From assembly GCA_018060545.1 (NCBI GenBank), contig JAGOVW010000003.1:343-64342 (forward strand): a stretch of DNA of 64,000 nt. Reading direction: 5' to 3'. Of the stretch, positions 47,697 through 64,000 are shown piece by piece; position 1 is the stretch's first letter; each line of letters begins with the position of its first letter. Both the position numbers and the translations under genes were made by a program. The notes beneath the pieces were generated by a model. The model searched no databases and had not been told where the DNA came from. It saw nothing but the letters and a program-made list of their open reading frames with translations. The DNA comes from Minisyncoccota bacterium (GTDB taxonomy: Bacteria > Patescibacteriota > Minisyncoccia > Phycocordibacterales > UBA2100).

Positions 47697-47723
47697 TATA
47701 TAGTGTTATATAAACACTATATA
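47697..47723. promoter_or_regulatory. Operator-like palindrome 2, TATATAGTGTT-ATATA-AACACTATATA (core TAGTGT-N7-ACACTA), 43 bp upstream of the NadM start, overlapping a TATA-rich -10-like region
   Basis: Perfect 11-bp arms seen directly. Confidence 0.45.
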
Positions 47724-47765
47724 TCCCAAGAAAGGAGCTCTTTGAAAACTCAGAAAGGACACGCT

Positions 47766-48662
47766 ATGCCTAAGTCGAAACAGAAGCTCAGTGTTGTGAT
47801 TGGCCGGTTCCAGGTACCCAGACTCCACGAAGGGCATCTGCACCTCTTGGAGATGGCCGCCAGAAATGGTCACGCACTTCTCGTTGTTCTTGGCTCACGC
47901 CGAGCACTACCCACGCAAAGGAACCCGCTCAGTTTTGCCATGCGCAAAGCAATGGTGTTGGCCGAGTACCCACACGCCACTGTGCTGGAACACTTCGACC
48001 ACCCATCGGACAGTGTATGGAGCACGGCGCTCGACGCTCTGATCCAGAGCGCATTCCCCGGACACTCCCCCACCCTCTTTGGATCACGCGACTCATTCAT
48101 CCCGCACTACCGCGGCGCGTTCAAGACGAAGTTGGTGAAGGAAGTACCGCACAAGAATGGCACCGCATTGCGCGAACACATCGCACACACGGAGCAGACG
48201 AGCGAAGACTTCCGCCGTGGCGTGATTCATACACACACCACACGCCTGCCCATTCCCTACCCTGCGATTGATGTGGCAGTACTCGCCCCCGTGCGTCGCC
48301 AGATTCTCTTGGGCGAGAAGAAAGCAGATGCGGGCAAACGACGCTTCATCGGTGGCTTCTTTGATCCGTCGCAAGACGAATCGATGGAGCACGCCGCAAA
48401 GCGCGAGACCCGTGAAGAAGCGCCGTCCATCGAAGTGTGCGGGTTCGATTACATCGGCTCGCGCGTCATTGACGATTGGCGCTATCGCGATGCTTCCGAC
48501 AAAATTGTCAGCTCACTCTTTGCGACCACTTACGTATTTGGCGCAACAAACGCTGGCGACGACCTCGATGCATTGCATTGGGTAAACTACGCCGATCTAC
48601 TCGACGTACTTACCCCCGAGCATCTCCCCTTCGGCGAGATGCTTGCAGCAAAAATTCGCTAA
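47766..48662 (+). CDS. nadM: Bifunctional NMN adenylyltransferase / Nudix ADP-ribose pyrophosphatase (NadM-Nudix)
   Basis: Nucleotidyltransferase motif GRFQVPRLHEGH (the NadM 'GRFQPxHxGH') and Nudix box GGFFDPSQDESMEHAAKRETREEA. SD AAAGGA lies 6 nt before ATG 47766. The track's upstream GTG at 47703 lies inside the palindrome. Confidence 0.8.
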   Translation: MPKSKQKLSVVIGRFQVPRLHEGHLHLLEMAARNGHALLVVLGSRRALPTQRNPLSFAMRKAMVLAEYPHATVLEHFDHPSDSVWSTALDALIQSAFPGHSPTLFGSRDSFIPHYRGAFKTKLVKEVPHKNGTALREHIAHTEQTSEDFRRGVIHTHTTRLPIPYPAIDVAVLAPVRRQILLGEKKADAGKRRFIGGFFDPSQDESMEHAAKRETREEAPSIEVCGFDYIGSRVIDDWRYRDASDKIVSSLFATTYVFGATNAGDDLDALHWVNYADLLDVLTPEHLPFGEMLAAKIR

Positions 48663-48678
48663 CCCACAGGAGAACATC

Positions 48679-50088
48679 ATGAACACCATGCACGACATCA
48701 ACACAGCCGAACTCACCGACAGCTACAAGATTTCGCACTGGAAGCAGTACCCACCGAAAACCGAGCACGTCTATTCGTTCCTCGAAAGCCGCGGCGGCGT
48801 GTTTCCCGAAGTCACCTTCTTTGGCCTTCAGTACTACCTGAAGCGCTATCTGGAAGGAGCAGTTATCACGCGTGAGAACGTCGAGGAGGCAGCGGAAGAT
48901 TTCGCTGCACACTTCGGCGATCCCACACTGATGAATACCGAAGGCTGGGAGCGCATTCTCTCGGTACACGGCGGCCGACTACCACTCGTCATAAAGGCAG
49001 TGCCCGAAGGACTCACCGTTCCCACCGGCAATGTCTTGATGAGCATCGAGAACACCGATACGAAACTTCCGTGGCTCACGAACTACGCCGAGACACTGCT
49101 CTCGATGCTGTGGTATCCCATTACCATCGCAACGCAGAGCCGGCAGATGCGCCACTTGGTCCTACGCTCTCTTGCCGAAACGGGTGATGAAAGCGGCATT
49201 GACTTCAAGGTCCACGACTTCGGTTTCCGTGGTTCGACATCCGTCGAATCGGCCGGCATCGGCGGCGCGGCACACCTCGTTTCCTTCAAAGGCACAGACA
49301 CCTTCCAAGGTATCCGTGTTGCGAAGAAGTACTACAAGGAGGCTATGGCCGGCTTCTCGATTCCTGCGGCCGAGCATTCCACGATTACGTCGTGGGGTCG
49401 CGAAAACGAGGTTGATGCGTATCGCAACATGCTCGAACAGTTCCCGAAAGGCCTCGTCGCCGTCGTCTCTGACAGCTACGACATCTATCGAGCGGTCTCC
49501 GAGCTTTGGGGCAAAGAACTGCGCGAGCAGGTCTTGGCCCGCGATGGCACACTGGTGGTGCGCCCGGATTCGGGCAACCCACCGGAAGTGGTGCTGAAAG
49601 TGCTCGCCCTTCTCGGCGAAGCATTCGGCACCACTCGTAACGCCAAAGGGTACCTCGTACTGAATCCGAAGGTACGTGTGATCCAAGGCGATGGTATCGA
49701 CTACACCATGATCGGCGTCATCCTTGATGCGATGAAACAGCATGGCTGGTCAGCCGACAACATCGCCTTCGGTTCTGGCGGCGGACTCCTGCAGAAGGTC
49801 AATCGCGACACGCAGAAGTTTGCCATCAAGTGCTCGGCAATCGACACCGCTGGTCGCTGGCACGATGTTATGAAAGATCCCATCACTGATCCGGGCAAGC
49901 GATCGAAAGCCGGCAAGCTGGCACTCGTCGCGGTTCCCGGGGCACATGGCATCGGCTATAGAACGATGCGCGAAGAAGAAGCCGCACGACGGGGATTGAA
50001 AAATATCCTCGTACCGGTCTTCGAAAACGGCAGAGTTCTTTCTGAGCACACGTTCGCCCAAATTCGCGAACGCGCACTTGCACAGTAA
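48679..50088 (+). CDS. nadV: Nicotinamide phosphoribosyltransferase (NadV/NAMPT)
   Basis: N-terminus ..NTAELTDSYKISHWKQYPP.. matches the NAMPT 'TDSYKVTHYKQYPP'. About 470 aa with ..GFRGS.., ..VIQGDGI.. The AGGAG SD is 7 nt upstream of ATG 48679. Confidence 0.85.
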   Translation: MNTMHDINTAELTDSYKISHWKQYPPKTEHVYSFLESRGGVFPEVTFFGLQYYLKRYLEGAVITRENVEEAAEDFAAHFGDPTLMNTEGWERILSVHGGRLPLVIKAVPEGLTVPTGNVLMSIENTDTKLPWLTNYAETLLSMLWYPITIATQSRQMRHLVLRSLAETGDESGIDFKVHDFGFRGSTSVESAGIGGAAHLVSFKGTDTFQGIRVAKKYYKEAMAGFSIPAAEHSTITSWGRENEVDAYRNMLEQFPKGLVAVVSDSYDIYRAVSELWGKELREQVLARDGTLVVRPDSGNPPEVVLKVLALLGEAFGTTRNAKGYLVLNPKVRVIQGDGIDYTMIGVILDAMKQHGWSADNIAFGSGGGLLQKVNRDTQKFAIKCSAIDTAGRWHDVMKDPITDPGKRSKAGKLALVAVPGAHGIGYRTMREEEAARRGLKNILVPVFENGRVLSEHTFAQIRERALAQ

Positions 50089-50817: not shown

Positions 50818-52071
50818 ATGCGCATCGCGGTAGTTGGATCAGGTATTTCTGGTATGGCCGCGGCATATCTCCTTGCACCTCACGCAGAGGTTACACTCTA
50901 CGAGCAAGCGCCCCAGCTTGGTGGCCACGCACACACTGCAACGGTTGCATTCAAAGACGTCACTGTGCCCGTCGACACGGGGTTCATGGTGTACAACCCG
51001 GTGCGATATCCATACTTCGTCGCACTCCTCAACGATCTGCAGGTCACTTCGCTCAACACGGTGATGAGTTTTTCGGCACACATTCCTGGCGAAGTTATGT
51101 ACAGCAGTGAGTTTCGCGGCCTTTTCGGCAATCTGCGCCAATGCATGAATCCTCGTTACTGGCGCATGATTGTAGACATCATACGATTCAATGCAGCAGC
51201 AAAGCGTTTCTTGCAGCAGCCAGACCCCGAAAAGCTCCTGGGAGATTTTCTGAGTGAGCACCGCTTTTCACCAGAGCTGTCGTCGTGGTACCTCTACCCC
51301 ATGATGGCATCAATTTGGTCTGCAGGGACCGATGCTTTGGAAAAATACCCCGCATACGAAACGTTCCGTTTTCTCAATAATCACCTGCTGCTCAACACGA
51401 TTACCAAAGCACAGTGGAAGACTATACAGGGTGGCTCTATTCGGTACGTGGAAGCCCTTGCGCAACGACTCGCACGCGAAGGTGTGACCATCCGTCTCAG
51501 CACACCAGTTACGTCCGTCACCCGCTCCACCGATGCCGTAACAATAACGACCGACAACAGCAGTGCTACCTTTGATCACGTCTATATCGCCACGCACGCG
51601 GACGAGGCACTTACCATGCTCCACGATGCAACTCATGCCGAGCGTGACGTATTGGGACTATTCTCCTACAGCTCGAATCACGTCGTCTTGCACAGCGACG
51701 AATCCTTTATGCCACCCCGCAAGAACACATGGGCATCGTGGAATTACGTCGAAGAAGTGGGGGCTACAAAGCGCGTCGCACTCACCTACTATATGAATTC
51801 ACTGCAACACATTAAGAAAGAATACCCAGTTTTTGTCACACTCAACCCGTCGCGCACACCTCGCACTGATCTCACCCATCACACGTACACGTATGCCCAT
51901 CCCGTGTTTGATGCTGCAGCTCGTTCGGGCCAAGCGCGCATACAGGAAATAAGCACGGGTCGTACTCACTATGTGGGTGCACACTTAGGTTTTGGATTTC
52001 ATGAAGACGGCATCGCGTCTGCGGTACACGCGGTGCAAGCGCTTGGCTTCCCTATCCGTCTTTCTCTATGA
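50818..52071 (+). CDS. FAD-dependent oxidoreductase (amine-oxidase-like; the kind associated with cyclopropane-fatty-acid synthase clusters)
   Basis: N-terminal dinucleotide-binding motif IAVVGSGISGMAAAY. 417 aa. Followed by DUF1365 with a 4-nt overlap. Confidence 0.75.
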   Translation: MRIAVVGSGISGMAAAYLLAPHAEVTLYEQAPQLGGHAHTATVAFKDVTVPVDTGFMVYNPVRYPYFVALLNDLQVTSLNTVMSFSAHIPGEVMYSSEFRGLFGNLRQCMNPRYWRMIVDIIRFNAAAKRFLQQPDPEKLLGDFLSEHRFSPELSSWYLYPMMASIWSAGTDALEKYPAYETFRFLNNHLLLNTITKAQWKTIQGGSIRYVEALAQRLAREGVTIRLSTPVTSVTRSTDAVTITTDNSSATFDHVYIATHADEALTMLHDATHAERDVLGLFSYSSNHVVLHSDESFMPPRKNTWASWNYVEEVGATKRVALTYYMNSLQHIKKEYPVFVTLNPSRTPRTDLTHHTYTYAHPVFDAAARSGQARIQEISTGRTHYVGAHLGFGFHEDGIASAVHAVQALGFPIRLSL

Positions 52072-52859
52072 AGAACGTGGAGCTCCTCACCGCCACAGTG
52101 GGCCACGAACGATTTTCACCCAAAAAGAACGCCTTCACCTACCAGGTGTACTACACGGTGTGTCCCGTTACCAATGAACCCGTAGCCACGCCAGCACTCT
52201 TTTCGTTCAACCGCTTTAATGTGCTCAGCATGCATACGAAAGATCATGGCCCAAAAGATGGCAGCGCGTGGCGCCCGTGGATTGCGGCACAGTGCAGCAC
52301 ACGAGGAATGCACGTAGCAGATGACGATGTCGTGCTGTTAGTTGCACACCCACGTCTTTTTGGCTTTGCATTCAACCCCATTTCATACTGGCTCGTGTTC
52401 GAAAAAAATACACACCTGAAAGCGGTACTATGTGAGGTGCACAACACGTTTGGCGATAACCACAATTACCTACTCCTGAACGAGGATTTCAGAAGCATCG
52501 AGCCGTCCGACCTCTTTGCGGCAAAGAAGAATTTGTACGTCTCGCCCTTCAATACCGTTGCACCAGGCAGCTATACGTTCTCGTTCACCGTGAACCCCAC
52601 GAAATTCAAATCGGTCATCAACTATTACGAAAACAACGTACACCTGTTGAATACATACATGGGCGGCACCCGCACCACGCTTACCACCAGGCGCATCTGT
52701 ACCGTCGTAATCATGTACCCATTGATGACACTGTTGGTTGTGTGGCGCATCCACTGGCAAGCCGTACGCCTCTACGTCAAAGGAGTGCGTCCCACCCTTT
52801 CATCTCGCCCACAGCATACGAAGGACAAAACGACACAGGGTTCTCGCACAACGCCGTAA
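52068..52859 (+). CDS. DUF1365 family protein
   Basis: Conserved position downstream of the amine-oxidase-like gene. Motif ..RLFGFAFNPISYW.. The 4-nt start/stop overlap indicates coupling. Confidence 0.65.
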   Translation: MKNVELLTATVGHERFSPKKNAFTYQVYYTVCPVTNEPVATPALFSFNRFNVLSMHTKDHGPKDGSAWRPWIAAQCSTRGMHVADDDVVLLVAHPRLFGFAFNPISYWLVFEKNTHLKAVLCEVHNTFGDNHNYLLLNEDFRSIEPSDLFAAKKNLYVSPFNTVAPGSYTFSFTVNPTKFKSVINYYENNVHLLNTYMGGTRTTLTTRRICTVVIMYPLMTLLVVWRIHWQAVRLYVKGVRPTLSSRPQHTKDKTTQGSRTTP

Positions 52860-53978
52860 CTAATTTTCTTTGATGAGATGTATCTGCCCCACATCAATCG
52901 TCCCCGAGCGGAACAACCCCGCACACACCATCAGATAGTATCGCCACATGCGATAAAAGCGCTCGTCGTACAAAGTATTACCCGCATCATCGGTTAGCTT
53001 CTGAATCTCACCCCACGCGCCACGAAACCGTTCGTCCCACATCATGAGCGTGCGGTCATAGTCTTTGCCAAATCGCTCAATCTCATTCATCGTAAACAAT
53101 CCGCGAATCGCACTTTCCAGCTGCGCCAAGGGTGGCAACACTCCATTAGGGAAAATACGTGTGGAAATCCATGAATCAGGTACTCCTTGCCCTAGTATGG
53201 CCTGCAGAAGAAAAGCCCCCTCAACTTTCAGCATCGTATGGGCCACCTGCATGTACGCGCGCAAGTTCTTCAATCCCACCGCTTCGATCATTTCAATAGA
53301 AACAACACGATCGAAACTTCCCTCGTACTCTTTTGGCAGCGTTCGATAGTCACCAAAGTAAAAAGTCACTGGGAGCCCCTCACACTTTTTTTCAGCAAAT
53401 GCGAGCTGTTCTTTTGAAACGGTCACACCGACAACACTCACTCCGTAGTGTTGTGCAGCATAAGCTGCGAAAGTGCCCCACCCACAACCAATTTCAAGTA
53501 CGCGCATACCAGGGGCGAGCTTGAGCGTTTTACACACGCGATCAAATTTTGCGTACTGGGCTTCTGCGAGAGTGGTGGCACCATTCCCGAAATAGCCCGA
53601 GCTGTATCCCATACTCTCTCCAAGCATGCGTTCGTACAGGCCGTTGCCCACATCGTAGTGTCTTTGCGCCACTTGAAACGCGCGGCGCACACTCTGCAAG
53701 TTGAAGAAGGTGTTTTGCATGCGCAGCAGCATATCTGCCAGCTGGCCAATATCGTATTCCAACTGCGCTCGCAGTACCCGATAGAAGAACTCATCGAGCT
53801 TCTCACAGTCCCACATACCAGAAACGTAGGCGTCACCCAACCCCAAACTTCCCAACACAAAGGTGCGCCAATACACACGAGCATCGTGTACGTGAGGGTC
53901 ATGCGGCTGCGTGCCGTTGATAGTCAGCCCTACAGACTGCAGCAACTCGGTTGCTCTGCGTTGAAATAGTGCACGCAT
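52860..53978 (-). CDS. cfa: Cyclopropane-fatty-acyl-phospholipid synthase
   Basis: SAM-binding motif VLEIGCGWGTFAAYAA. Cfa-specific C-terminal motifs (..YYLMVCAGLFRSG..). 372 aa. Confidence 0.85.
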   Translation of the reverse strand: MRALFQRRATELLQSVGLTINGTQPHDPHVHDARVYWRTFVLGSLGLGDAYVSGMWDCEKLDEFFYRVLRAQLEYDIGQLADMLLRMQNTFFNLQSVRRAFQVAQRHYDVGNGLYERMLGESMGYSSGYFGNGATTLAEAQYAKFDRVCKTLKLAPGMRVLEIGCGWGTFAAYAAQHYGVSVVGVTVSKEQLAFAEKKCEGLPVTFYFGDYRTLPKEYEGSFDRVVSIEMIEAVGLKNLRAYMQVAHTMLKVEGAFLLQAILGQGVPDSWISTRIFPNGVLPPLAQLESAIRGLFTMNEIERFGKDYDRTLMMWDERFRGAWGEIQKLTDDAGNTLYDERFYRMWRYYLMVCAGLFRSGTIDVGQIHLIKEN

Positions 53979-57159: not shown

Positions 57160-57233
57160 CCCTCAAAAGCAAAAAAGAGAACCGCCCAGCACGCTGGGCG
57201 GTTCGTATAAATGAACAGGTCACGGTGCCAAGG

Positions 57234-57494
57234 TCAGCCCTTGTCGCCGGCCTGCTTGATGACCTCGATGTTGTCGCCGGGCTGGATCACGTAGGTGCGC
57301 CCGGCTGCCTTTCCATTCACGAGCACAGATCCCTTCCACGGTTCGTTGTATCCCATCACGTCGGCCACATCCTGATCGCCGAGGAAGTCCTCGACGGTTC
57401 GGCCGACCGCATCGAAACTCTGCGTGGTCGGACCGTACGAGAGGGAGAGTTGCACGCTGCCCGTGGTCACGGGCGAGTCTGCGATGTCGCTCAT
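57234..57494 (-). CDS. Ubiquitin-like beta-grasp protein (ThiS/MoaD-like), 86 aa, C-terminal ...QAGDKG
   Basis: ..VLVNGKAAGRTYVIQPGDNIEVIKQAGDKG fits the ThiS/MoaD 'V.vNg......l.dGD.v.i' pattern with a terminal Gly. The 4-nt overlap (ATGA) with the E1 gene implies translational coupling. Confidence 0.6.
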   Translation of the reverse strand: MSDIADSPVTTGSVQLSLSYGPTTQSFDAVGRTVEDFLGDQDVADVMGYNEPWKGSVLVNGKAAGRTYVIQPGDNIEVIKQAGDKG

Positions 57495-58189
57495 TTCTTG
57501 GTTCCTTCCGTTCTTAGTACCGGGCGTTGTTGCCCACTCTTGATGTCGAAATACAGTTCACTGTACACGACACCAATTTCTGTGATGACGTAGAACGCGT
57601 TCGCCATATTGGCGGCCGCGGTGAGATTCGCAAATGCCAACTGTGGCGTCCCCAGGGCCGAGCGCTCTTCGCAACTTAGCTCGTCGGGATTCCGATCAGT
57701 GGGCTTCTGAATCTCGGGGTGCAGGTAGGTCAACGGCGGAGTCACGTTCTTCTTTCCCCGACGAATATACACCTGCACGTTGCCGTCGTCGAAGCCGTTA
57801 CCGCCCGAAATGAGGGTCCCGTCTTTGAGTGTGGCGCAGTGGTCGGAGAGCAGCTTTCGCGTCGCGTGGTTATCAACGCACGAGAACACCACACTCCCTT
57901 CCGGAATCAGCACGAATGCATTGTCGTCGGTGATGAACCGCGGCTTTGCATCCACCTGCAATTCCGGTAGTAGTCGCTTCAGGCGGGCTGCAGTTACTTC
58001 TGCCTTGTTACCCAACGCGTCAAATTCTTGGCGCGCTTCATTCTTTGGCTCGTACTGATCTCCATCCACGAGCACGAGCTGTGCCTGCGGAAATGATTGG
58101 CGCAGATAGCGCGCCAGTGGCGGCGCCAGGTGCGTGCCAATACCTCCGAGGCCAACGATAACAACACGGCGAATGTCAGGTTTCTTCAT
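57491..58189 (-). CDS. E1-like ThiF/MoeB-family adenylyltransferase (232 aa, minimal E1 without rhodanese or Zn extension)
   Basis: RVVIVGLGGIGTHLAPPLARYL (GxGxxG), LVLVDGDQYEPKNEARQ (the 'D.D.ve.sNlnRQ'), KAEVTAARLKRLLPELQV, SCVDNHATR (the 'DN...R'). SD AGAGGAG 7 nt upstream. Confidence 0.75.
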   Translation of the reverse strand: MKKPDIRRVVIVGLGGIGTHLAPPLARYLRQSFPQAQLVLVDGDQYEPKNEARQEFDALGNKAEVTAARLKRLLPELQVDAKPRFITDDNAFVLIPEGSVVFSCVDNHATRKLLSDHCATLKDGTLISGGNGFDDGNVQVYIRRGKKNVTPPLTYLHPEIQKPTDRNPDELSCEERSALGTPQLAFANLTAAANMANAFYVITEIGVVYSELYFDIKSGQQRPVLRTEGTKK

Positions 58190-58916
58190 GGAGTACTCCT
58201 CTTGTTGGCGACGATGCTTGTGGTAGCCGAGCAGAACTTGAATGAGTCACATTGTTCACCCATGATTCGGGAACTTCCCAATCCATAAGTGCGGGAGCGT
58301 CGCTGTGAAAGCTGTACGCCCCTCGCCGATCTTGCCACGAGAACCGTCCGTCTTCTTGCACGCCACCCACATGGGTGTCGATGCAGAAACGATGACTGCG
58401 CACCACGAGCGACGCTTCCATGGAAAACTTCGACCGTTGGTTCAGATCACCAATGATGATATGTACCCCATCGAAATCTGCCTCGTCTGCATCATCCACC
58501 GATGAATGCCGCGCGACCAGACTTCCATGCGAATGCATGGTGCCGACGCAGCTATATCCAGGAATCCGCTCGCTCATGTCGTAGTGTACGTGCGCTGCAC
58601 TCACTATCTGCGGCGGAACAGTGCATGCCCATCCCGCAGGTCCGTGATGCAGCAACACTGCTGCTTCCGAGCGATACAGCTGATAGATGCGCCGGAAGAA
58701 TAGCAACACCTGCCCTACCACCACCGCATCAATCGGTGGCAAGAGAAGCTGTGCCTGGGGGCGTTCCCGCTCGAGTGTTGCCACATCGATGGGTACCGTC
58801 GCTGCAAGCCAGTTATTCCTGATGCGCAGAAAAACCCCGTTTGTCGCCACCACATGTGCAGTGGAAACATGGTCAGGTATCTGCACACCAGGTCGTTTCA
58901 GAAAGACCGGTAGCAT
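58176..58916 (-). CDS. JAB/JAMM (MPN+) metalloprotease, deubiquitinase-like
   Basis: JAMM motif HSHGSLVARHSSVDD (H-x-H-x7-S-x2-D) with an upstream Glu (YRSEAA). GAGGAG SD. Overlaps the E1 start by 14 nt. Confidence 0.7.
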   Translation of the reverse strand: MLPVFLKRPGVQIPDHVSTAHVVATNGVFLRIRNNWLAATVPIDVATLERERPQAQLLLPPIDAVVVGQVLLFFRRIYQLYRSEAAVLLHHGPAGWACTVPPQIVSAAHVHYDMSERIPGYSCVGTMHSHGSLVARHSSVDDADEADFDGVHIIIGDLNQRSKFSMEASLVVRSHRFCIDTHVGGVQEDGRFSWQDRRGAYSFHSDAPALMDWEVPESWVNNVTHSSSARLPQASSPTRGVLHEET

Positions 58917-58921
58917 ATGGT

Positions 58922-60376
58922 TTACTCCTCACGTCTTGGTTGTTGATCTTGCAACGCACCGCCGAGCTGATCAGCCACTGCAGAGAGCGCCGAAGCGAGC
59001 GTTTCGTTGATAGTTTCTTGCACCTGTGTTGCCGCACGTTTGCTCACTGCCGCAACGGTGTCGCTTATCTTTGCGTCGGTGCACGCTTTTTCAAGCTCAG
59101 AACGAATCAGATCGGCCATCCGTTGTGCAATGCCGGCTTCATGTAGTGCGGTGCGCATTTTCTCGTCGAATGATGCGCGTGCTGCGGCGACGCCTTTCTC
59201 GTCGCTCACAGCATTAACCACTGCCTCTCGAATCGCCAAACTTAATGCGCCAGACACATCGTGAGAGTATCGTTCGAGTCGTGACATGGCTCGCCCTGCA
59301 TTGAATGCAGTAGCTTTTGCTGGTGCTCGCGCACCAAAGCTTGCCACAGTGAACCCACTCTCAAGCCACCGAATCTTCAGGACATCGAGCGGACGCCCAG
59401 AACTCGTCGTACGCCACGTGCGCAACGAAAAGTCAGGGATCTTTCGTGCCGACGCTTCGTAGTGCGCATTCAGATGATGTGAACTAAAGCTGCTCTCCCA
59501 AAAAGATAGTTGCGCCGACACAGCGATATCTGCCGGTGCACCACGCGTTACACGTGGCGCAGGAAAGCAGAGCGCCAAGTCGGGATGCAAATCCGGAAGA
59601 GGTGGCCGATGCAAACGATCGGTTGGAAGCGCGAGCGGTTCGTTTCTGAAAAACGCGTGAAAGTTGTTGTACCTCCCGTTCTCCAGCACGAGCGCAAACA
59701 CCACATATGGAAACGAAAGCTGCACGAGCTCACGATCCCATCTAATAGTGCGTACGCGCGGCGCCTCTTCTATGAAGTAGATCGTCGTCGAGTCGCCTCG
59801 GTAGACAAAGCGAGTACCAATCGGAAGCGCGGTGACTTGTTCGTCACGCGATACCCCGGCACCTGCCTCTTTGCGGGCATACACAATCATTTGAGCGAGG
59901 CACTCTTTAATGCCCTGCTCAAACTGTTTCTGCCCAATCGTTCCCGCAGCCTCTACCATCGATCGGTGTACTGCCTGGATGGCAGCACGTCCTTCGGTAG
60001 CAAATGCTGCTGGCAATTCCTCGGTGCCCAAAACCAGCGCATCAACCTCGCGATTGAATGCGTTTCGAGCACGACCGGAACGCTGCTTTGCGCTGCGCTC
60101 CACTGCCTCTCTGATAGTGCTCTGCGCCTCTTGGCCCAGCTTTTGTAGCGCTGCAGAAACTTCCTTCGCTGCTGTTGCTGCAATACTCTTTAGTGTGAAC
60201 GACTCATGCTCCACCACAGTGATGCGGGGAAATATGAGCCAGAACCACCCACGCTGTTCGAGCGAAAATCGCCTGAAAGCGTGCTCTTTCTGCGGGTCAC
60301 GCTGAAAGATAGATTGCTTACACAACTGCAACCAAGAAAGATCTCCCGCCACGCTGTGCCTGATACGGCTAAGCAT
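58922..60376 (-). CDS. Hypothetical 484-aa protein, first gene of the Ubl/E1/JAB operon. It is a candidate E2-like or target-recognition component.
   Basis: 5 nt upstream of the JAB gene with an AGAGGAG SD. It contains ..LPDLHPDLALCFPAP.. (HPx-x3-C, reminiscent of the UBC 'HPN...C' active site), but this is unverified. Otherwise the sequence is Ala/Arg-rich and helical. Confidence 0.5.
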   Translation of the reverse strand: MLSRIRHSVAGDLSWLQLCKQSIFQRDPQKEHAFRRFSLEQRGWFWLIFPRITVVEHESFTLKSIAATAAKEVSAALQKLGQEAQSTIREAVERSAKQRSGRARNAFNREVDALVLGTEELPAAFATEGRAAIQAVHRSMVEAAGTIGQKQFEQGIKECLAQMIVYARKEAGAGVSRDEQVTALPIGTRFVYRGDSTTIYFIEEAPRVRTIRWDRELVQLSFPYVVFALVLENGRYNNFHAFFRNEPLALPTDRLHRPPLPDLHPDLALCFPAPRVTRGAPADIAVSAQLSFWESSFSSHHLNAHYEASARKIPDFSLRTWRTTSSGRPLDVLKIRWLESGFTVASFGARAPAKATAFNAGRAMSRLERYSHDVSGALSLAIREAVVNAVSDEKGVAAARASFDEKMRTALHEAGIAQRMADLIRSELEKACTDAKISDTVAAVSKRAATQVQETINETLASALSAVADQLGGALQDQQPRREE

Positions 60377-60514
60377 GTGCGTTTCTCCTCTGTACGTTAA
60401 GGTTCAATCCAGACGGTTCATACCATAAAAACAGGGGTTTGTATACACGCGCTGATTTACATTCAGCACGCACAGTGGTATCACCTCTAGGGACAACAAA
60501 GCTGGGAGTGACAC

Positions 60515-61114
60515 ATGCCCACCATCATCGCGACGCTCAAGAAAAATCCTGAAGACCACGCGCTCTTGCACGACATGTATCGCCATGTGTATCTGAATGG
60601 CGAATGCTACGCATTCGCCATTGCCCTGAACGACGGATTAGGCTGGCCAATGGTCGGCCTCATGAAAGGCGACGTCATCTGGCACGCCGGCGTTCGCGCT
60701 CCTGACGGGCGGATACACGATGTGCGCGGCTTCCTCTCTGAGGAAACATTCGCCTCGTACTTCTTGTCTCCCCCGTTTGTGCTGCGCACAATTGATGAAA
60801 CGATGATGCGCAACACACGCAAAATCGATGAGCACACCATTAGGTATGCACGCCATCTGGCTGAAACGCTGTGGCCCGAGCTGCCATGGAAAGAAACCTA
60901 CGCCATGAAAGTGCATGCGTTTGCTGAGGAGCTCGAAGCGCTCTCCAGGAAGCATGGATTCTGGATTACGGGCTCGGTACCTGCGCAGGCCCCACGCTTG
61001 TACAAAGAATGTGGCGATGAAGGCGGCTACCGAGTGTGCCCCACGAGCGATGGATTGGCATACACCGTGAGACGCTATCTGGATTTTGAGGTTGACGTGG
61101 ATGATCTCGAATAA
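60515..61114 (+). CDS. Hypothetical protein (199 aa), divergent from the Ubl operon
   Basis: ORF with GGGAG SD and a downstream terminator. Confidence 0.5.
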   Translation: MPTIIATLKKNPEDHALLHDMYRHVYLNGECYAFAIALNDGLGWPMVGLMKGDVIWHAGVRAPDGRIHDVRGFLSEETFASYFLSPPFVLRTIDETMMRNTRKIDEHTIRYARHLAETLWPELPWKETYAMKVHAFAEELEALSRKHGFWITGSVPAQAPRLYKECGDEGGYRVCPTSDGLAYTVRRYLDFEVDVDDLE

Positions 61115-61133
61115 GATCACTCACAGAAAATGG

Positions 61134-61163
61134 AACCGCCGCATTCTGCGGCGGTTTTGATTT
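61134..61163. terminator. Bidirectional Rho-independent terminator between convergent genes 60515..61114 (+) and 61171..61707 (-)
   Basis: aaccgccgc-attct-gcggcggtt followed by ttgattt on the plus strand. On the minus strand a T-rich run (ccattttctgtg) follows. Confidence 0.7.
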
Positions 61164-61170
61164 GAAAGAT

Positions 61171-61707
61171 TTAGACATTACGGTGCGGCGCCCAATGTTT
61201 CTCTGTGATAGTAGAAACCTGTGTTTGAAAGTCAGTACCTACATTAACAACTTCCAGTGGTAATTCCGCCTGAGAAAAGATATCCGCCACCAACGCATCC
61301 CTTTCTATACGATCAGCACGCTGATGCGATGATCCGTTCAGCTCTATCGCAACGATGGGTTTAAAGCTTCTGTCGCATATCAAAAAATCCACATGCTTTG
61401 GAAGTATTTTGTTTCTGCGATTATAGAATCCTACGCCATGCACGGCGTCTATAACATCTGCTATGCGCATATTCGGGAAGAGGTGATACTCGGCCGGCAG
61501 CTGTTTTCTGATTTCAAAAAAAAGTGCCTGCTCGCTGGCGTTCATCACGACAGAGCGTACCCTGTACCCTTTTGGGCGTACATGAACTTGATTAGTGGTC
61601 TTCCCCCCTCCAAAATCAACACCATCGAATCCAACAAAAATCGCGAGGTATAGAAAGAGCCCAAGGAAGAAGATCACTCCGAGACCAACGAAAATCAGAT
61701 TACTCAC
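61171..61707 (-). CDS. Membrane-anchored DUF2726/NERD-like (restriction-endonuclease-fold) protein
   Basis: N-terminal TM (LIFVGLGVIFFLGLFLYLAIFVGF). The core ..KHVDFLICDRSFKPIVAIELNGSSHQRADRIERD.. matches the DUF2726 'VDFvl.d....p..vIElDg.sH' nuclease-fold signature from memory. Confidence 0.55.
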   Translation of the reverse strand: MSNLIFVGLGVIFFLGLFLYLAIFVGFDGVDFGGGKTTNQVHVRPKGYRVRSVVMNASEQALFFEIRKQLPAEYHLFPNMRIADVIDAVHGVGFYNRRNKILPKHVDFLICDRSFKPIVAIELNGSSHQRADRIERDALVADIFSQAELPLEVVNVGTDFQTQVSTITEKHWAPHRNV

Positions 61708-61967
61708 CCACTAACTATAGCAGAGCCTTTTCTCCACTCTCGCCCCGTTGAGTTCATGAAAGATAGGTCCTACGGCTTCCCTACTTCAAATCGAAAGTCG
61801 AGAGTGACAACGTTCCACATGATTAGATTTCGCATGGGTTTAGTTTAAGGGAAAAGATGTGCTGTGACTCACCCGCCCCTACCCCATGCGAACAATCGGG
61901 GAGCTCACGTATGCCTCGCTAAGACGATGGAACCAGCGCATGCTAGGCGGTTTCGATTTCAAAAAAG

Positions 61968-63812
61968 CTAACTAATATCAACGCTCCATGCCGTGTCATA
62001 GGCGTACTGAGCGAGATCCATAGCACGCTTATCAATGAGCTCCTTATCCCATGTTCGCCCTTTGTATTGAGTGATTATACGTTTGCTGTTGCCTAAGTTT
62101 GCAAGCCACTTGCCATCCTCGTCAATTTTTGCAAACTTTTCTTCAGGGGTCGCGTCGTTAAATGAACTGTTTGAATGCATCGATATGACTAGCAAGTTCC
62201 CTATGTTGTCACCACTTTCAGGCCCGACCAAGTCTCCTTTCCTCTGAAACAGACTTCTGGGGTAAAAGTGCTCAATATTGGCACTATTTTTCTTAATATC
62301 GGAAGACGGGACATACAGAGGATAGATCTGATCCCCTTGCGATTCAGCGTTTGCCAAGCGGTCGAAAATGTAATACGTAAGAGGCTTTCCAATTTCATCA
62401 CTACTAATGCTGGAAAATTGAGAGATAAACGACTTGCGCTTGTTCCTAAGCTCAAGCAGCTTTGTCTTAAGTTTCTGTTCTTTCTCAATGAGAGTGGCAA
62501 AATCCGGGGCATCACTGAACGCTTTTGCATACTCGGCGTACAGTGTCTCAACTTGATTTCCGATATTTCCACCAATAACAGTATTAATAAAATGGAAATT
62601 TTCCAACCTTTTTATAAAACAAATAAACAACTCACCACTCGACTTCTTTCCACTAGGATTCGCCCCATCTTCTGTTGAGAATCGTTTTAGCGCTTCGAGG
62701 TAGGTATAGATCAAAGGGTAAAGTTGAGTAATCCCAAAAAGCTGGAATGCTGAGATTGAGCGAACAATTGGATTTCGCTGGTATTTCTTACCCAGCAGGT
62801 GCAGACTACCCATCTCCTCGAAGTATTTTAAAAGACTTTCGCCATGCGCAAAGGTAATGTCTTCATCCAACATCATCCTATAAAAAAACGAGAAACGTAA
62901 GAGATTTTCAACCAACTCGAGAGTACTCTTTCCTTTTACGAGAACATTCAGCTTAGGGAAAATATCCTTCCTAAGAGTTTTGCCATTAAAGGTGACAGTG
63001 TAATACTTCAACATTTGACTCAACTTGTCAGATGAATTCGCGGAAATTTGATCCCATTTTTGATCGATTTCATCATGCAATGATTCCTTGGAGTTCTGGA
63101 ATAGGAGGTTTTTGACAAGATCAGATTGAGCCAATTTGACTCCTCTAGCATTTGTTCGCTCAAAAATATCAAATGCTTCTTGTGGGTCATCTAATTTTAT
63201 CTCGGTCACAAAAATGCGCTGCAGCGAATTCAATATTTCAGCCAATTCGCTCGATGACAGACTCTTAACTTTGTCATGGAGGAAGTGAAAAACAGGTTCC
63301 ACTTTTCTCTTCATCTTCCGATATCTTCTGCCATCGAGTCCCTCAATCTTGTCGGGGATGTGACCATCCCACTTATAATCAGACATCAGGTCATACAAAG
63401 GCTTGATTCCTTTAGCAGGTGTCAATTTTTTTATTCCAGTATTTTCAGCTCTGGCAAATCGGTTCGCCACGTAGTCAATTAGGTTCGTCACATTCGAAAT
63501 TAAAAGAGGATCATCATTCAGAATTTTGGCTCGCACACGAATTGCTATGAATAGGATCTGTAAAGTGGTGATTCTCTGCTGCCCATCAATAATTGACAAG
63601 GTGTCGCCTGCGGTGCTGCTCCTAAGAAATATAAAACTACCAAAGAAAAGTGAGTCTTTACCTTTTTGATTAACCGACTCTAAATCAGCCCAGAAGTTCT
63701 CAATTTGCTCCTTCCCCCAATCATACCCACGTTGAAATCGAGGAACTTCGTATAAAACTTCTTTTTCAAACACCGATATAAGGTCGACGTTATGAGGTTC
63801 AAATTTAGCCAT
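61968..63812 (-). CDS. GmrSD-family type IV (modification-dependent) restriction endonuclease: N-terminal DUF262 (ParB-like NTPase) fused to C-terminal DUF1524 (His-Me finger nuclease)
   Basis: DUF262 motifs ..FQRGYDWGKEQ.. and IIDGQQRITTLQ (DGQQR). The C-terminal ..NIEHFYPRS.. His-Me/HNH-like motif is typical of DUF1524. 614 aa. Conspicuously AT-rich relative to neighbouring genes. Confidence 0.8.
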   Translation of the reverse strand: MAKFEPHNVDLISVFEKEVLYEVPRFQRGYDWGKEQIENFWADLESVNQKGKDSLFFGSFIFLRSSTAGDTLSIIDGQQRITTLQILFIAIRVRAKILNDDPLLISNVTNLIDYVANRFARAENTGIKKLTPAKGIKPLYDLMSDYKWDGHIPDKIEGLDGRRYRKMKRKVEPVFHFLHDKVKSLSSSELAEILNSLQRIFVTEIKLDDPQEAFDIFERTNARGVKLAQSDLVKNLLFQNSKESLHDEIDQKWDQISANSSDKLSQMLKYYTVTFNGKTLRKDIFPKLNVLVKGKSTLELVENLLRFSFFYRMMLDEDITFAHGESLLKYFEEMGSLHLLGKKYQRNPIVRSISAFQLFGITQLYPLIYTYLEALKRFSTEDGANPSGKKSSGELFICFIKRLENFHFINTVIGGNIGNQVETLYAEYAKAFSDAPDFATLIEKEQKLKTKLLELRNKRKSFISQFSSISSDEIGKPLTYYIFDRLANAESQGDQIYPLYVPSSDIKKNSANIEHFYPRSLFQRKGDLVGPESGDNIGNLLVISMHSNSSFNDATPEEKFAKIDEDGKWLANLGNSKRIITQYKGRTWDKELIDKRAMDLAQYAYDTAWSVDIS

Positions 63813-63931
63813 ATAGCAATGGTATCACCACATCGTACGGAACACATCGGCCCAGCTACGGCTTTTCGAATCCAAGCTGCAGTATGCCCCCAGCATACTG
63901 CTTCCCGCAGCAAAATCTACTGCGTATATTT

Positions 63932-64000
63932 TGCTGCCGGACTTGGATTCGAACCAAGATACCCTGCTCCAGAGGCAGGAGTCCTACCATTAGACGATCC
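63932..64000 (-). tRNA. tRNA-Gln (anticodon CUG), 5' end truncated by the window edge (~4 nt missing)
   Basis: The reverse complement reads ..GGATCGTCTAATGGTAGGAC-T-CCTGC-CTCTGGA-GCAGG-GTAT-CTTGG-TTCGAAT-CCAAG-TCCGGCA-G-CAA. It has D-loop, anticodon loop with U33-CUG, T-loop GGTTCGAATCC and acceptor 3' strand TCCGGCA. Confidence 0.6.

Follow-up and report, generated by a model that had tools for sequence, protein, structure and literature searches.

[quoted passage not shown] The original prediction had described a packed operon for a 484-aa protein, a JAB peptidase, an E1 and a Ubl with 5-, 14- and 4-nt junctions, each gene with its own Shine-Dalgarno sequence, and had proposed a role against phages.

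Gene set and expression signals

All four open reading frames were confirmed, together with their junctions and Shine-Dalgarno sequences, and the following features were assigned to the locus:

60377–60514, minus strand: upstream intergenic region of 138 nt, presumed promoter/leader
58922–60376, minus strand: gene 1, 484-aa protein (GAGGAG Shine-Dalgarno)
60194–60376, minus strand: its N-terminal helix and beta-hairpin region, residues 1–61 (AF2 secondary structure; conserved G43, W44 and P50)
59861–60193, minus strand: its "arm", a long antiparallel helical hairpin, residues 62–172 (AF2 helices 62–117 and 120–172)
59321–59836, minus strand: its E2-like core, residues 181–352 (AF2 pLDDT 90–97; region common to all family members)
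59567–59569, minus strand: Cys270 codon, predicted E2 thioester cysteine (conservation)
58961–59299, minus strand: its C-terminal helical region, residues 360–472 (AF2 helices 360–392, 394–413, 416–431 and 434–472)
58176–58916, minus strand: JAMM/JAB metallopeptidase, 246 aa, with an N-terminal JAB-N-like domain (Prok-JAB and PRTRC_A matches)
58665–58667, minus strand: codon of the upstream catalytic Glu84 of the JAB (read from the sequence)
58494–58535, minus strand: JAMM motif H128-S-H130-x7-S138-x2-D141 (HSHGSLVARHSSVD, residues 128–141; read from the sequence)
57491–58189, minus strand: minimal ThiF-type E1, 232 aa (Pfam ThiF, 85 bits)
57671–57673, minus strand: Cys173 codon in the "ELSCEE" loop, predicted E1 thioester cysteine (conservation)
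57234–57494, minus strand: beta-grasp Ubl, 86 aa, ending in KQAGDKG followed by the stop codon (weak ThiS and Ub-Mut7C matches)
57237–57239, minus strand: codon of the C-terminal Gly86, predicted adenylation and conjugation site (sequence and conservation)
57179–57204, minus strand: intrinsic terminator, an 11-bp stem with 8 G-C pairs, then TCTTTTTTGC

The four genes form one tightly coupled operon with its own terminator. A 5-nt gap separates the 484-aa protein from the JAB, and the JAB/E1 and E1/Ubl pairs overlap by 14 and 4 nt, respectively. The start codons are preceded by GAGGAG, GAGGAG, AGGAG or GGAAGG, and the terminator stem, with its T-run, lies 30 nt past the final stop codon (57204–57179). 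Because no match to the sigma-70 consensus occurs in the 138-nt upstream region, its status as a promoter or leader is presumed only. The short motifs named in the original prediction were also recovered, namely HSHGSLVARHSSVD in the JAB, GLGGIG and DNHATR in the E1, DLHPDLALC in the 484-aa protein, and QAGDKG at the end of the Ubl.

Conservation of the four-gene unit among homologues, which the original prediction had named as a check, was observed. Five additional CPR loci (six CPR loci in total) have the set in identical order although their flanks are unrelated, so the arrangement is not due to chance, and no fifth gene is conserved across the six. The same order (E2-JAB-E1-Ubl) is also seen in mid-distance relatives, and 21 of the 22 viral loci found in IMG/VR carry all four genes in this order.

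Catalytic residues and an E2-like core

The E1 contains the motifs GLGGIG, DGD..E..N..RQ, GNK and DNHATR, and has neither a rhodanese domain nor CxxC zinc motifs. Its closest solved structure is ThiF (1zud, E = 4e-9), and every one of the 25 primary E1s at the CPR and phage loci has the predicted thioester cysteine. The JAB reaches 26.2 bits against the Pfam Prok-JAB model (cut-off 25) and weakly matches DUF2016 at residues 20–43; sequence comparison found no relative of solved structure. Among 25 JABs of CPR and phage origin, conservation of the E...HxHx7Sx2D motif is at least 95%.

Beta-grasp families are matched repeatedly among 18 members of the Ubl family (TGS in 13, ThiS in 11 and Ub-Mut7C in 9). 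The "AG-x-K-G" C-terminus is kept in the CPR, phage and poly-Ubl relatives, and Gly86 is replaced by alanine in three CPR orthologues. The Ubl of the source organism needs no C-terminal trimming, whereas some relatives carry one further residue (C or R, giving KGC or KGR ends) and a Bacillus phage relative encodes a four-unit head-to-tail poly-Ubl with KAGVKG|M junctions; from their sequences, these relatives are predicted to need trimming by the JAB. Such a range of ends is expected of a C-terminally activated Ubl that is accompanied by a processing and deconjugating peptidase.

For the 484-aa protein, one suggestion had been an E2 fused to additional domains, and this is the one that held. 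Exhaustive HMMER searches (E ≤ 1e-3) recovered relatives in 1,126 representative clusters, which share residues ~181–352. Pfam Prok-E2_D is matched by 29 of 75 members in an unbiased sample of the family, several above the gathering score, and apart from it no family recurs among the 75. These matches fall on the E2-like core, and relatives also match PRTRC_B. Together, the profile matches support the protein as a probable E2-family member with extra domains. In the core, a beta-meander is followed by FFRNEPL, a P-x-L-P-D...C270 loop, and helices bearing W293, F297 and W321. Cys270, which lies in the DLHPDLALC stretch, is invariant in A1–A4 and at least 95% conserved across 26 CPR and phage sequences. 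The comparison of this stretch to a UBC active site stands for the cysteine, but not for the "HPD" triplet as an equivalent of HPN, since the triplet varies among orthologues that keep only the Cys and a P-x-L-P-[DN] motif. The UBC fold that had been anticipated around this segment was not confirmed by fold or profile comparisons.

The extra domains surround this core in the AF2 model (mean pLDDT 81.8). G43, W44 and P50 of the N-terminal region are invariant columns in A1 and A3, and an HMM of residues 1–66 matches long forms of ~480–500 aa only. The arm helices (pLDDT ~75–86) find only generic helical hairpins as structural matches, while the C-terminal helical region has no family match. Across the six CPR and 21–22 viral loci, the catalytic E1 and E2 cysteines, the JAMM site and the AG-x-K-G end of the Ubl are all conserved. 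Three things are thereby established: which genes make up the set, to which families they are assigned, and that every catalytic residue is conserved in both CPR bacteria and phages.

Relationship to known Ubl systems

The original assignment to a "6E"/Bil/Bub type was not supported, since class 6e corresponds to Bub (PMC11601596), class 6c corresponds to type II Bil (PMC10557695), and the JAB and E1 match the PRTRC_A and PRTRC_ThiF models of class 6d. With PADLOC, the E2, JAB and Ubl matched nothing and the E1 drew only weak, generic matches (BilD reached E = 0.043 only). Membership in Bil, Bub or CBASS was rejected. Operons of class 6d are annotated by NCBI as the PRTRC (ParB-related, ThiF-related) cassette. 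The class was predicted in 2006 as Ubl/JAB/E1/E2-like operons (Iyer, Burroughs & Aravind 2006, PMC1779556), and no experimental test of it was found in the literature.

By its sequence features, the operon is closest to this 6d/PRTRC class, as a long-E2 variant. In both, a small E1 and a JAB bearing an additional N-terminal domain are encoded separately, the Ubl is a single domain that ends in Gly, the E2-like protein has a conserved Cys but not the classical HPN His, and the distribution is mobile and patchy. The JAB (PRTRC_A positions 28–176 of 192; 36 bits, cut-off 101.8) and the E1 (PRTRC_ThiF positions 13–217 of 245; 46.9 bits, cut-off 144.75) align almost end to end, although with scores 3–4 times below the cut-offs. 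The canonical order (Ubl, E2, helical protein, JAB, E1) is found in a small-form relative, L035. On the other hand, the operon lacks ParB, PRTRC_E/F and the separate "novel alpha-helical protein", its Ubl gene comes last, and its E2, at 484 aa, starts with a beta region, continues with a helical hairpin of ~110 residues and has a further ~110 helical residues towards the C-terminus. A His downstream of the Cys, described for 6d as "absolutely conserved", is kept here (H301) only by the closest CPR clade. The hosts also differ: CPR bacteria and large phages carry this operon, whereas 6d/PRTRC is found on plasmids or ICEs of Proteobacteria, Firmicutes and Bacteroidetes.

Like BilABCD (types I and II), the operon encodes Ubl, E2, JAB-type DUB and E1 as separate polypeptides without an E3. 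Target recognition in Bil is proposed to lie with the E2, and the DUB trims one residue from some Ubls (PMC10557695), which is comparable to the KGC/KGR ends described above. However, the Bil gene order is Ubl-E2-DUB-E1, its E1 is large, with two domains (IAD, and AAD with a CYS domain and a zinc site), in place of a 232-aa single ThiF domain, and the evidence for phage defence that exists for Bil has no counterpart for this cassette. Bub operons, too, encode a bacterial route for conjugating a Ubl, made up of the Ubl itself, an E1, an E2-like protein and a peptidase. Several beta-grasp domains occur in some of their Ubls (PMC11601603), a feature comparable to the poly-Ubl of the Bacillus phage. 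In Bub, however, neither the E1 nor the E2 has a catalytic Cys, so that the intermediates are oxyesters (Tyr/Ser), and a DUF6527 serine protease acts as the peptidase (PMC11601596). The operon in the window instead has both cysteines, which are conserved, and a JAMM peptidase.

A sulfur-carrier pathway of the ThiS-ThiF, MoaD-MoeB or CysO-MoeZ-Mec+ kind, which the original prediction had kept as an alternative, would also combine a ThiF-fold adenylating enzyme with a small beta-grasp protein and, in the CysO pathway, a JAB (Mec+). The E1 would then turn the Ubl into a thiocarboxylate for cofactor or cysteine synthesis, with the C-terminus exposed by a Mec+-like JAB. ThiF, MoeB and Uba4 are indeed the closest solved relatives of the E1, ThiF and MoeB are its top NCBIfam matches by E-value, the Ubl weakly matches ThiS, and ~640 nt downstream there is a gene for a rhodanese. 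We nevertheless consider this reading highly improbable. The ThiF/MoeB scores all fall far under the equivalog cut-offs (e.g., 54 versus 275), the Ubl ends in -DKG or -xKA instead of -GG, the E2-family Cys protein is strictly co-conserved, no cysM, thiG, moaE or similar gene occurs in any flank, and the cassette is present in phages. The rhodanese was correctly judged an unlikely partner, as its N-terminus is a hydrophobic segment for export or anchoring, the terminator and a further open reading frame separate its gene from the operon, and the other loci lack it. The evidence thus supports a Ubl, E1 and JAB operon of the conjugation type, which is outside biosynthetic pathways and every characterised defence family.

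Distribution and proposed role

Two nuclease genes beside the cassette in the window were confirmed, one for GmrSD, a type IV restriction enzyme, and the other for a DUF2726 nuclease. The defence island that had been read from them was not supported, as they form a separate two-gene islet of 40–47% GC beside a cassette at the contig norm (55–57%) and are not conserved at other loci. The nearby tRNA proved real: it matches Rfam at 63934–64000, where it is cut by the window edge, and was missed by ARAGORN.

A Bil-like host defence, in which the Ubl is attached on infection to phage proteins such as virion parts and blocks assembly, would fit these nuclease neighbours, RmuC next to the cassette at L006, and a SymE-like toxin, serine recombinase and Prim-Pol at L001. 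The patchy distribution, variable flanks and fast-evolving E2 are typical of defence genes, and Bil and type II CBASS provide precedents (PMC10557695, PMC11601603). We regard such a role as unlikely, given the PADLOC result, the separate composition of the nucleases, and relatives that are mostly in large phage genomes and not in known anti-phage systems. Many of the 22 IMG/VR relatives are fixed between SbcCD-like and RNA-polymerase genes. The synteny conserved in large viral contigs runs from an SbcC-like ATPase through a Metallophos nuclease and WYL_2 to the cassette, after which come another ThiF-like gene and a split RNAP beta'. A related module (poly-Ubl, Prok-E2_D-like, JAB and ThiF) occurs in the cultured Bacillus jumbo phage vB_BauM_KLEB27-3, amid RNA-repair and nucleotide-metabolism genes.

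These conserved replication and transcription blocks, which weigh against the proposed anti-phage role, favour another reading, in which the module serves the phage or mobile element itself, through host takeover, counter-defence or reversible tagging that controls its own replication, repair or transcription proteins, with CPR copies as integrated or domesticated remnants. The BFVD structural relatives are all of tailed-phage origin, plasmids or ICEs carry the related PRTRC cassette (Iyer 2006, Table 1, PMC1779556; NCBIfam name), and the L001 cassette adjoins a serine recombinase and a Prim-Pol/PriCT primase. This reading remains tentative, as the cassette in the window has the GC content of its contig, is surrounded by ordinary metabolic genes, and shows no detectable integrase or att repeat nearby; defence systems directed at rival phages are found in phages too, which makes a phage location compatible with defence. 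For the CPR copy, we lean slightly towards an element-derived function over host defence.

Overall, we favour, with a probability of about 0.72, a self-contained and horizontally mobile Ubl-conjugation operon with a thioester relay and reversible tagging, circulating between phages or other elements and CPR bacteria. We infer the thioester relay, what the arms do and which proteins are the targets. The ThiF-type E1 would adenylate the exposed Gly86 and load the Ubl on Cys173 as a thioester, from which it would be handed to Cys270 in the Prok-E2_D-type core. By oligomerising and/or binding targets, the long helical arms may do the work of an E3, and the Ubl would end up on amino groups of target proteins. 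The JAMM peptidase would undo the conjugation and, in relatives with an extra-residue Ubl or poly-Ubl, also mature the precursors. The operon may act as a conflict or takeover module that passes between CPR bacteria and mobile elements such as large phages. The E1, 44–51% identical to the phage E1s, is the slowest evolving of the proteins, and the E2-like protein, at 21–29% identity, the fastest, as would be expected if the E2 arms carry specificity.

A four-gene ubiquitin-like cassette

Four minus-strand ORFs lie where the original prediction placed them, and all of the motifs quoted for them were found in the sequence:

58922-60376, minus strand, ORF for the E2-like protein (484 aa)
58176-58916, minus strand, ORF for the JAB peptidase (246 aa)
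57491-58189, minus strand, ORF for the E1 (232 aa)
57234-57494, minus strand, ORF for the ubiquitin-like protein (Ubl, 86 aa)

The E2-like and JAB ORFs are 5 nt apart, the JAB and E1 ORFs overlap by 14 nt, and the E1 and Ubl ORFs overlap by 4 nt. All four genes have a strong Shine-Dalgarno sequence upstream, and a terminator consisting of an 11-bp GC-rich hairpin and a T-run is located 30 nt past the last stop codon of the cassette. The four genes constitute one unit. The start annotated at NCBI for an identical protein (P0001, 476 aa) is 8 codons downstream of the 484-aa start (window 60353-60376); the GAGGAG Shine-Dalgarno sequence and the orthologues aligning from residue 1 favour the 484-aa start.

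The E1 is a minimal ThiF domain (Pfam ThiF, 85 bits), and its nearest solved relative is ThiF. It has the features of an E1-like enzyme (ThiF/MoeB/Uba), namely GxGxxG, an Arg finger, DN..R and a Cys at the catalytic position. The residues G13, G15, G18, D42, D44, N50, K62, D106, and R111 are each at least 95% conserved, and Cys173 (“E[LM]SCEE”), which likely sits in the E1 crossover loop, is found in 25 of 25 primary E1s. The JAMM motif of the JAB is intact (Glu84, H128-S-H130...S138..D141; conservation of at least 95% over 25 sequences), and the protein scores 26.2 bits against Pfam Prok-JAB (cut-off 25). Approximately 95 residues, a possible JAB-N domain, precede the JAMM domain and include a weak DUF2016 match (residues 20-43, 18.2 bits versus a cut-off of 24.3); the five CPR (candidate phyla radiation) orthologues share a Trp but not the “strictly conserved Arg”.

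The window Ubl ends in AGDKG right at the stop codon, and thus has an exposed or exposable C-terminal Gly. The “AG-x-K-G” ending is kept in phage and other Ubl relatives, some of which carry one additional residue (KGC, KGR) or are poly-Ubl, while three CPR orthologues end in Ala rather than Gly. The Ubl and its relatives consistently match the beta-grasp families TGS (13/18), ThiS (11/18), and Ub-Mut7C (9/18), all below the gathering score, and a Ubl profile has weak matches in the PDB to TGS, SAMP2, MoaD, and a ThiS-like protein. The gene set, together with catalytic residues conserved from CPR to phage, bears out the proposal of a Ubl, E1, and JAB conjugation-type operon.

The 484-aa E2-like protein

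The 484-aa protein has no direct match in Pfam, NCBIfam, PADLOC or PHROGs, and Pfam Prok-E2_D (PF14460) found nothing in the protein itself at E ≤ 0.1. An exhaustive HMMER profile search with its family recovered 1,126 representative clusters at E ≤ 1e-3 (509 at E ≤ 1e-10), which have in common the segment corresponding to residues ~181-350. In an unbiased sample of these relatives (every second match), 29 of 75 match Prok-E2_D at E ≤ 0.01 and no second family recurs; one relative of the 484-aa protein matches PRTRC_B, weakly. Five relatives that match the profile of the window protein at E ≤ 1e-18 exceed the PF14460 gathering score of 25 bits (P0077, 29.8; P0106, 27.2; P0053, 33.8; P0076, 27.3; P0089, 27.3 bits). 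Because relatives reach PF14460 while the window protein does not, its membership in Prok-E2_D would be transitive, as a divergent branch.

The AlphaFold2 model of the protein, built on a 36-sequence alignment (mean pLDDT 81.8), contains the following regions:

Residues 1-61, N-terminal helix and beta-hairpin region
Residues 62-172, antiparallel helical hairpin of ~110 residues
Residues 185-350, core with a beta-meander, an extended loop with Cys270, then helices (pLDDT 90-97)
Residues 360-472, four C-terminal helices

Cys270, in the loop after the beta-meander, is invariant in all four alignments (A1-A4), and its conservation across 26 CPR and phage sequences is at least 95%. The CPR and phage versions also share the FPYV strand, W293, F297, and W321. 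The idea that the helical hairpin was inserted between the core and an N-terminus shared with small-form E2s found no support, because an HMM of residues 1-66 matches long forms only.

The triplet “HPD” (residues 264-266), previously taken as a hint of an E2-like active site, is not conserved among orthologues. The nearest analogue of the HPN motif may be a conserved F-[FY]-R-N-x-P-L just past the last strand. H301, which is C-terminal to Cys270, does not vary among the 11 closest sequences but is lost from the 36-sequence alignment and from that of the small forms, which read “FN” at this position. Foldseek found no significant match to the E2-like protein in the PDB, profile searches of the PDB with full-length and core alignments returned chance-level matches only, and comparison of the core alignment with UBE2D2, UBE2N, and UBE2I (approximate sequences) in hhalign gave a probability of 1.6%. 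The view of the protein as a probable E2 with extra domains holds up. Similarity to canonical E2 profiles, HPN motif included, was not found.

Relation to class 6d and distribution in CPR and phages

[quoted passage not shown] The layout and protein types of the window cassette match this class (Iyer et al., 2006; PMC1779556), which is annotated at NCBI as PRTRC (NCBIfam TIGR03734-03742), and the canonical 6d gene order is seen in a small-form relative. Membership in PRTRC itself was considered for the window cassette and rejected. The JAB scores 36.2 bits against PRTRC_A (model positions 28-176 of 192; cut-off 101.8) and the E1 46.9 bits against PRTRC_ThiF (positions 13-217 of 245; cut-off 144.75), so that both curated cut-offs are missed approximately threefold or more. 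In addition, the ORFs neighboring the cassette have no NCBIfam match, a ParB-related protein and PRTRC_E/F (the separate alpha-helical protein) are absent, and the “absolutely conserved” His of 6d past the Cys is limited to the closest clade of the cassette.

The original prediction had placed the operon with Bil/Bub/6E-type systems, which was wrong, as the nearest class is 6d. Bil (6c or type I), Bub (6e), and type II CBASS (6b) were ruled out by the published systems (PMC10557695, PMC11601596, PMC11601603) and by PADLOC, in which the models for BilABCD, Bub, and type II CBASS did not match the E2, JAB or Ubl; the E1 had weak partial matches to Cap2 E1-E2 (best E = 1e-7, N-terminal ~80 residues) and a match to BilD at E = 0.043. 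We rate the cassette as a CPR- and phage-borne variant of a known but experimentally unexplored class, with a long-form E2, a rearranged order, and four genes. No functional study of 6d/PRTRC or of phage-borne versions was found in the literature searched.

A word-indexed search with the 484-aa protein returned five homologues only, all from CPR. The same four genes occur in the same order, with unrelated flanks, in the locus of each homologue and in a sixth locus (Ca. Uhrbacteria), and all-against-all BLAST of the flanks of six CPR loci identified no fifth conserved gene (target, E3 or effector). Mid-distance relatives (~21% identity; 486 and 691 aa) keep the order of E2-like protein, JAB, ThiF, and a ~76-aa ORF. 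A scan of genome contigs by degenerate pattern, a method that needs close relatives, added one extra locus only, and ten relatives are metagenomic singletons by cluster membership. In a Moranbacteria locus (L001, 4110-8785), the cassette adjoins a large serine recombinase, a Prim-Pol/PriCT primase, and a pol-beta-thumb protein, with a SymE-like toxin gene on its other side; this cassette appears to be on or beside an integrated mobile element. E1 matches on plasmids (Clostridium, Thermoanaerobacterium, Alicyclobacillus) are lone ThiF genes, with no E2, JAB or Ubl detected in the one locus examined.

A scan of IMG/VR identified 22 loci on contigs of 24-527 kb, one of 527 kb being UViG_3300005613_000001. 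HMMs built from CPR sequences detected the E2-like protein, JAB, and E1 in the same order at all 22 loci, and the Ubl at 21 of them, the exception being L021, where the CPR-orthologue HMM had no Ubl match. The phage E2-like proteins are longer (~850-880 aa) and the phage JABs are 350-620 aa. Identity between window and phage proteins is 44-51% for E1, 27-35% for JAB, and 28-39% for Ubl, but only 21-29% for the E2 core. BFVD contained four significant structural relatives, all uncharacterised proteins from uncultured tailed phages. In five of the seven phage loci examined, the cassette is part of a fixed same-strand block, preceded by an SbcC-like ATPase, a Metallophos nuclease, WYL_2, and a small ORF, and followed by a ~150-190-aa ORF, a second ThiF-like gene, and a split RNA-polymerase beta', which has only distant likeness to the split subunits of jumbo phages.

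The second ThiF-like ORF (~285-305 aa) is located ~0.7 kb downstream of the Ubl gene in many phage loci, including L015, L016, L021, L022, L024, L026, and the following:

L010, 13403-14278, second ThiF-like ORF
L013, 13816-14676, second ThiF-like ORF

Its match to Pfam ThiF (69.6 bits) is confined to the N-terminal ~115 residues, and the Cys loop ELSCEE is missing. By analogy with eukaryotic E1s, it could be the inactive subunit of a heterodimeric E1. The JAB of L013 (10414-11949, 512 aa) has a Cys-rich C-terminal extension with weak zinc-finger-type matches (C1, PHD, zf-C2HC5); such an extension, absent from CPR JABs, might serve in binding targets or the Ubl.

The Bacillus phage vB_BauM_KLEB27-3 (216.7 kb, OM634661.1), cultured on B. 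australimaris, carries a related module (L031, 745-6735), which the annotation of OM634661.1 does not call a ubiquitin-like system:

gp199, four head-to-tail Prok_Ub units (93.9 bits), each ending in KAGVKG then Met, with a short tail
gp196, weak Prok-E2_D match
gp195, JAB, annotated as PRTRC_A
gp194, ThiF-family E1

Each of the four Prok_Ub repeats in gp199 is matched by the Ubl family HMM, and the module also encodes a 559-aa protein without an assigned family.

Biological role and genomic neighborhood

The reading of the operon as a Ubl-conjugation system holds up. The Ubl would be adenylated, then held as a thioester on the E1 Cys, then passed to the E2 Cys, and then transferred to a target, while the JAMM peptidase would reverse conjugation or mature the Ubl. 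Every residue needed for this relay and for the JAMM step is conserved between very distant hosts. No conserved E3 candidate was found in the cassette loci. The E2-like protein evolves faster and varies more in length than any other component, and its arms are therefore natural candidates for target selection or oligomerisation. The alternative, that the Ubl acts in a sulfur-carrier pathway, is very unlikely, as the Ubl lacks a -GG end, the E1 lacks a rhodanese domain, and a biosynthetic partner gene is absent from every flank inspected. A rhodanese is encoded nearby, but it belongs to a separate transcription unit and is not conserved. Also at odds with a sulfur carrier are the strict co-conservation of a Cys-bearing E2-family protein with the cassette and the occurrence of the cassette in phages.

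The anti-phage role proposed for this conjugation system gained no support. Tentatively, and with a probability that we put at roughly three in ten, the system may be centred on phages: a clade of large or jumbo phages, and CPR bacteria that traded genes with such elements, would encode a full E1-E2-Ubl-DUB cascade in which a giant, fast-evolving E2 with helical arms (or 850-aa extensions) picks targets directly, so that host or rival-phage proteins are tagged during infection. Such a viral ubiquitination machine would mirror Bil, and class 6d may have originated in this setting. Classes 6b (CBASS), 6c (Bil), and 6e (Bub) were predicted in 2006, and each brought a mechanistic surprise once studied. 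The window locus is a compact four-gene version of 6d without ParB or accessory genes, in which the built-in helical arms of the E2 could replace an E3. The conservation of the cassette in a group of large phages, and a related module with a polyubiquitin-style precursor in a cultured Bacillus jumbo phage, raise the question of whether phages run ubiquitin-like conjugation themselves, and against what. The material is tractable: the proteins are small, their catalytic residues are clear, and one phage is in culture together with its host. Should the system instead prove defensive in CPR, it would join the small number of defence mechanisms characterised in this vast radiation of uncultured bacteria.

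The tRNA noted beside the cassette region is real (Rfam, 63934-64000, minus strand, 46.4 bits) and is cut by the window edge; ARAGORN found no tRNA in the window, missing the edge-cut one. Two genes are located between the tRNA and the cassette:

61171-61707, DUF2726 nuclease
61968-63812, GmrSD/HEC-06 type IV restriction enzyme

The nuclease and restriction genes invoked as a defence-island context for the cassette are thus genuine, but they form a separate islet (61000-63900) of 40-47% GC, whereas the cassette, at 55-57% GC, does not differ from the remainder of the contig. No att-like repeat of the tRNA 3' end was found, and consequently an island boundary is not definable. The tRNA-adjacent stretch looks like a small acquired islet. 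Divergent from the cassette is a 199-aa ORF (window 60515-61114, plus strand) with only a faint YunG-like match. A homologue that is 78% identical is present in the related locus L007, where it lies three additional genes away from the cassette; this arrangement indicates that an insertion or deletion occurred recently at the edge of the cassette among close relatives.

Elsewhere in the window, overlapping genes for a NadM-Nudix-like cytidylyltransferase/NUDIX protein (319 aa) and NAMPT (481 aa) (47703-50088, plus strand) form an NAD salvage pair. Pairs of this kind are also found in phages. At 50818-53978, genes for a flavin amine oxidase, DUF1365, and a cyclopropane-fatty-acid synthase are adjacent, and the synthase gene runs in the opposite direction to the others. 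A lipid-modification cluster of this sort seems out of the ordinary in a CPR organism with a reduced genome, and may be relevant to whether the MAG carries the correct taxonomic label.
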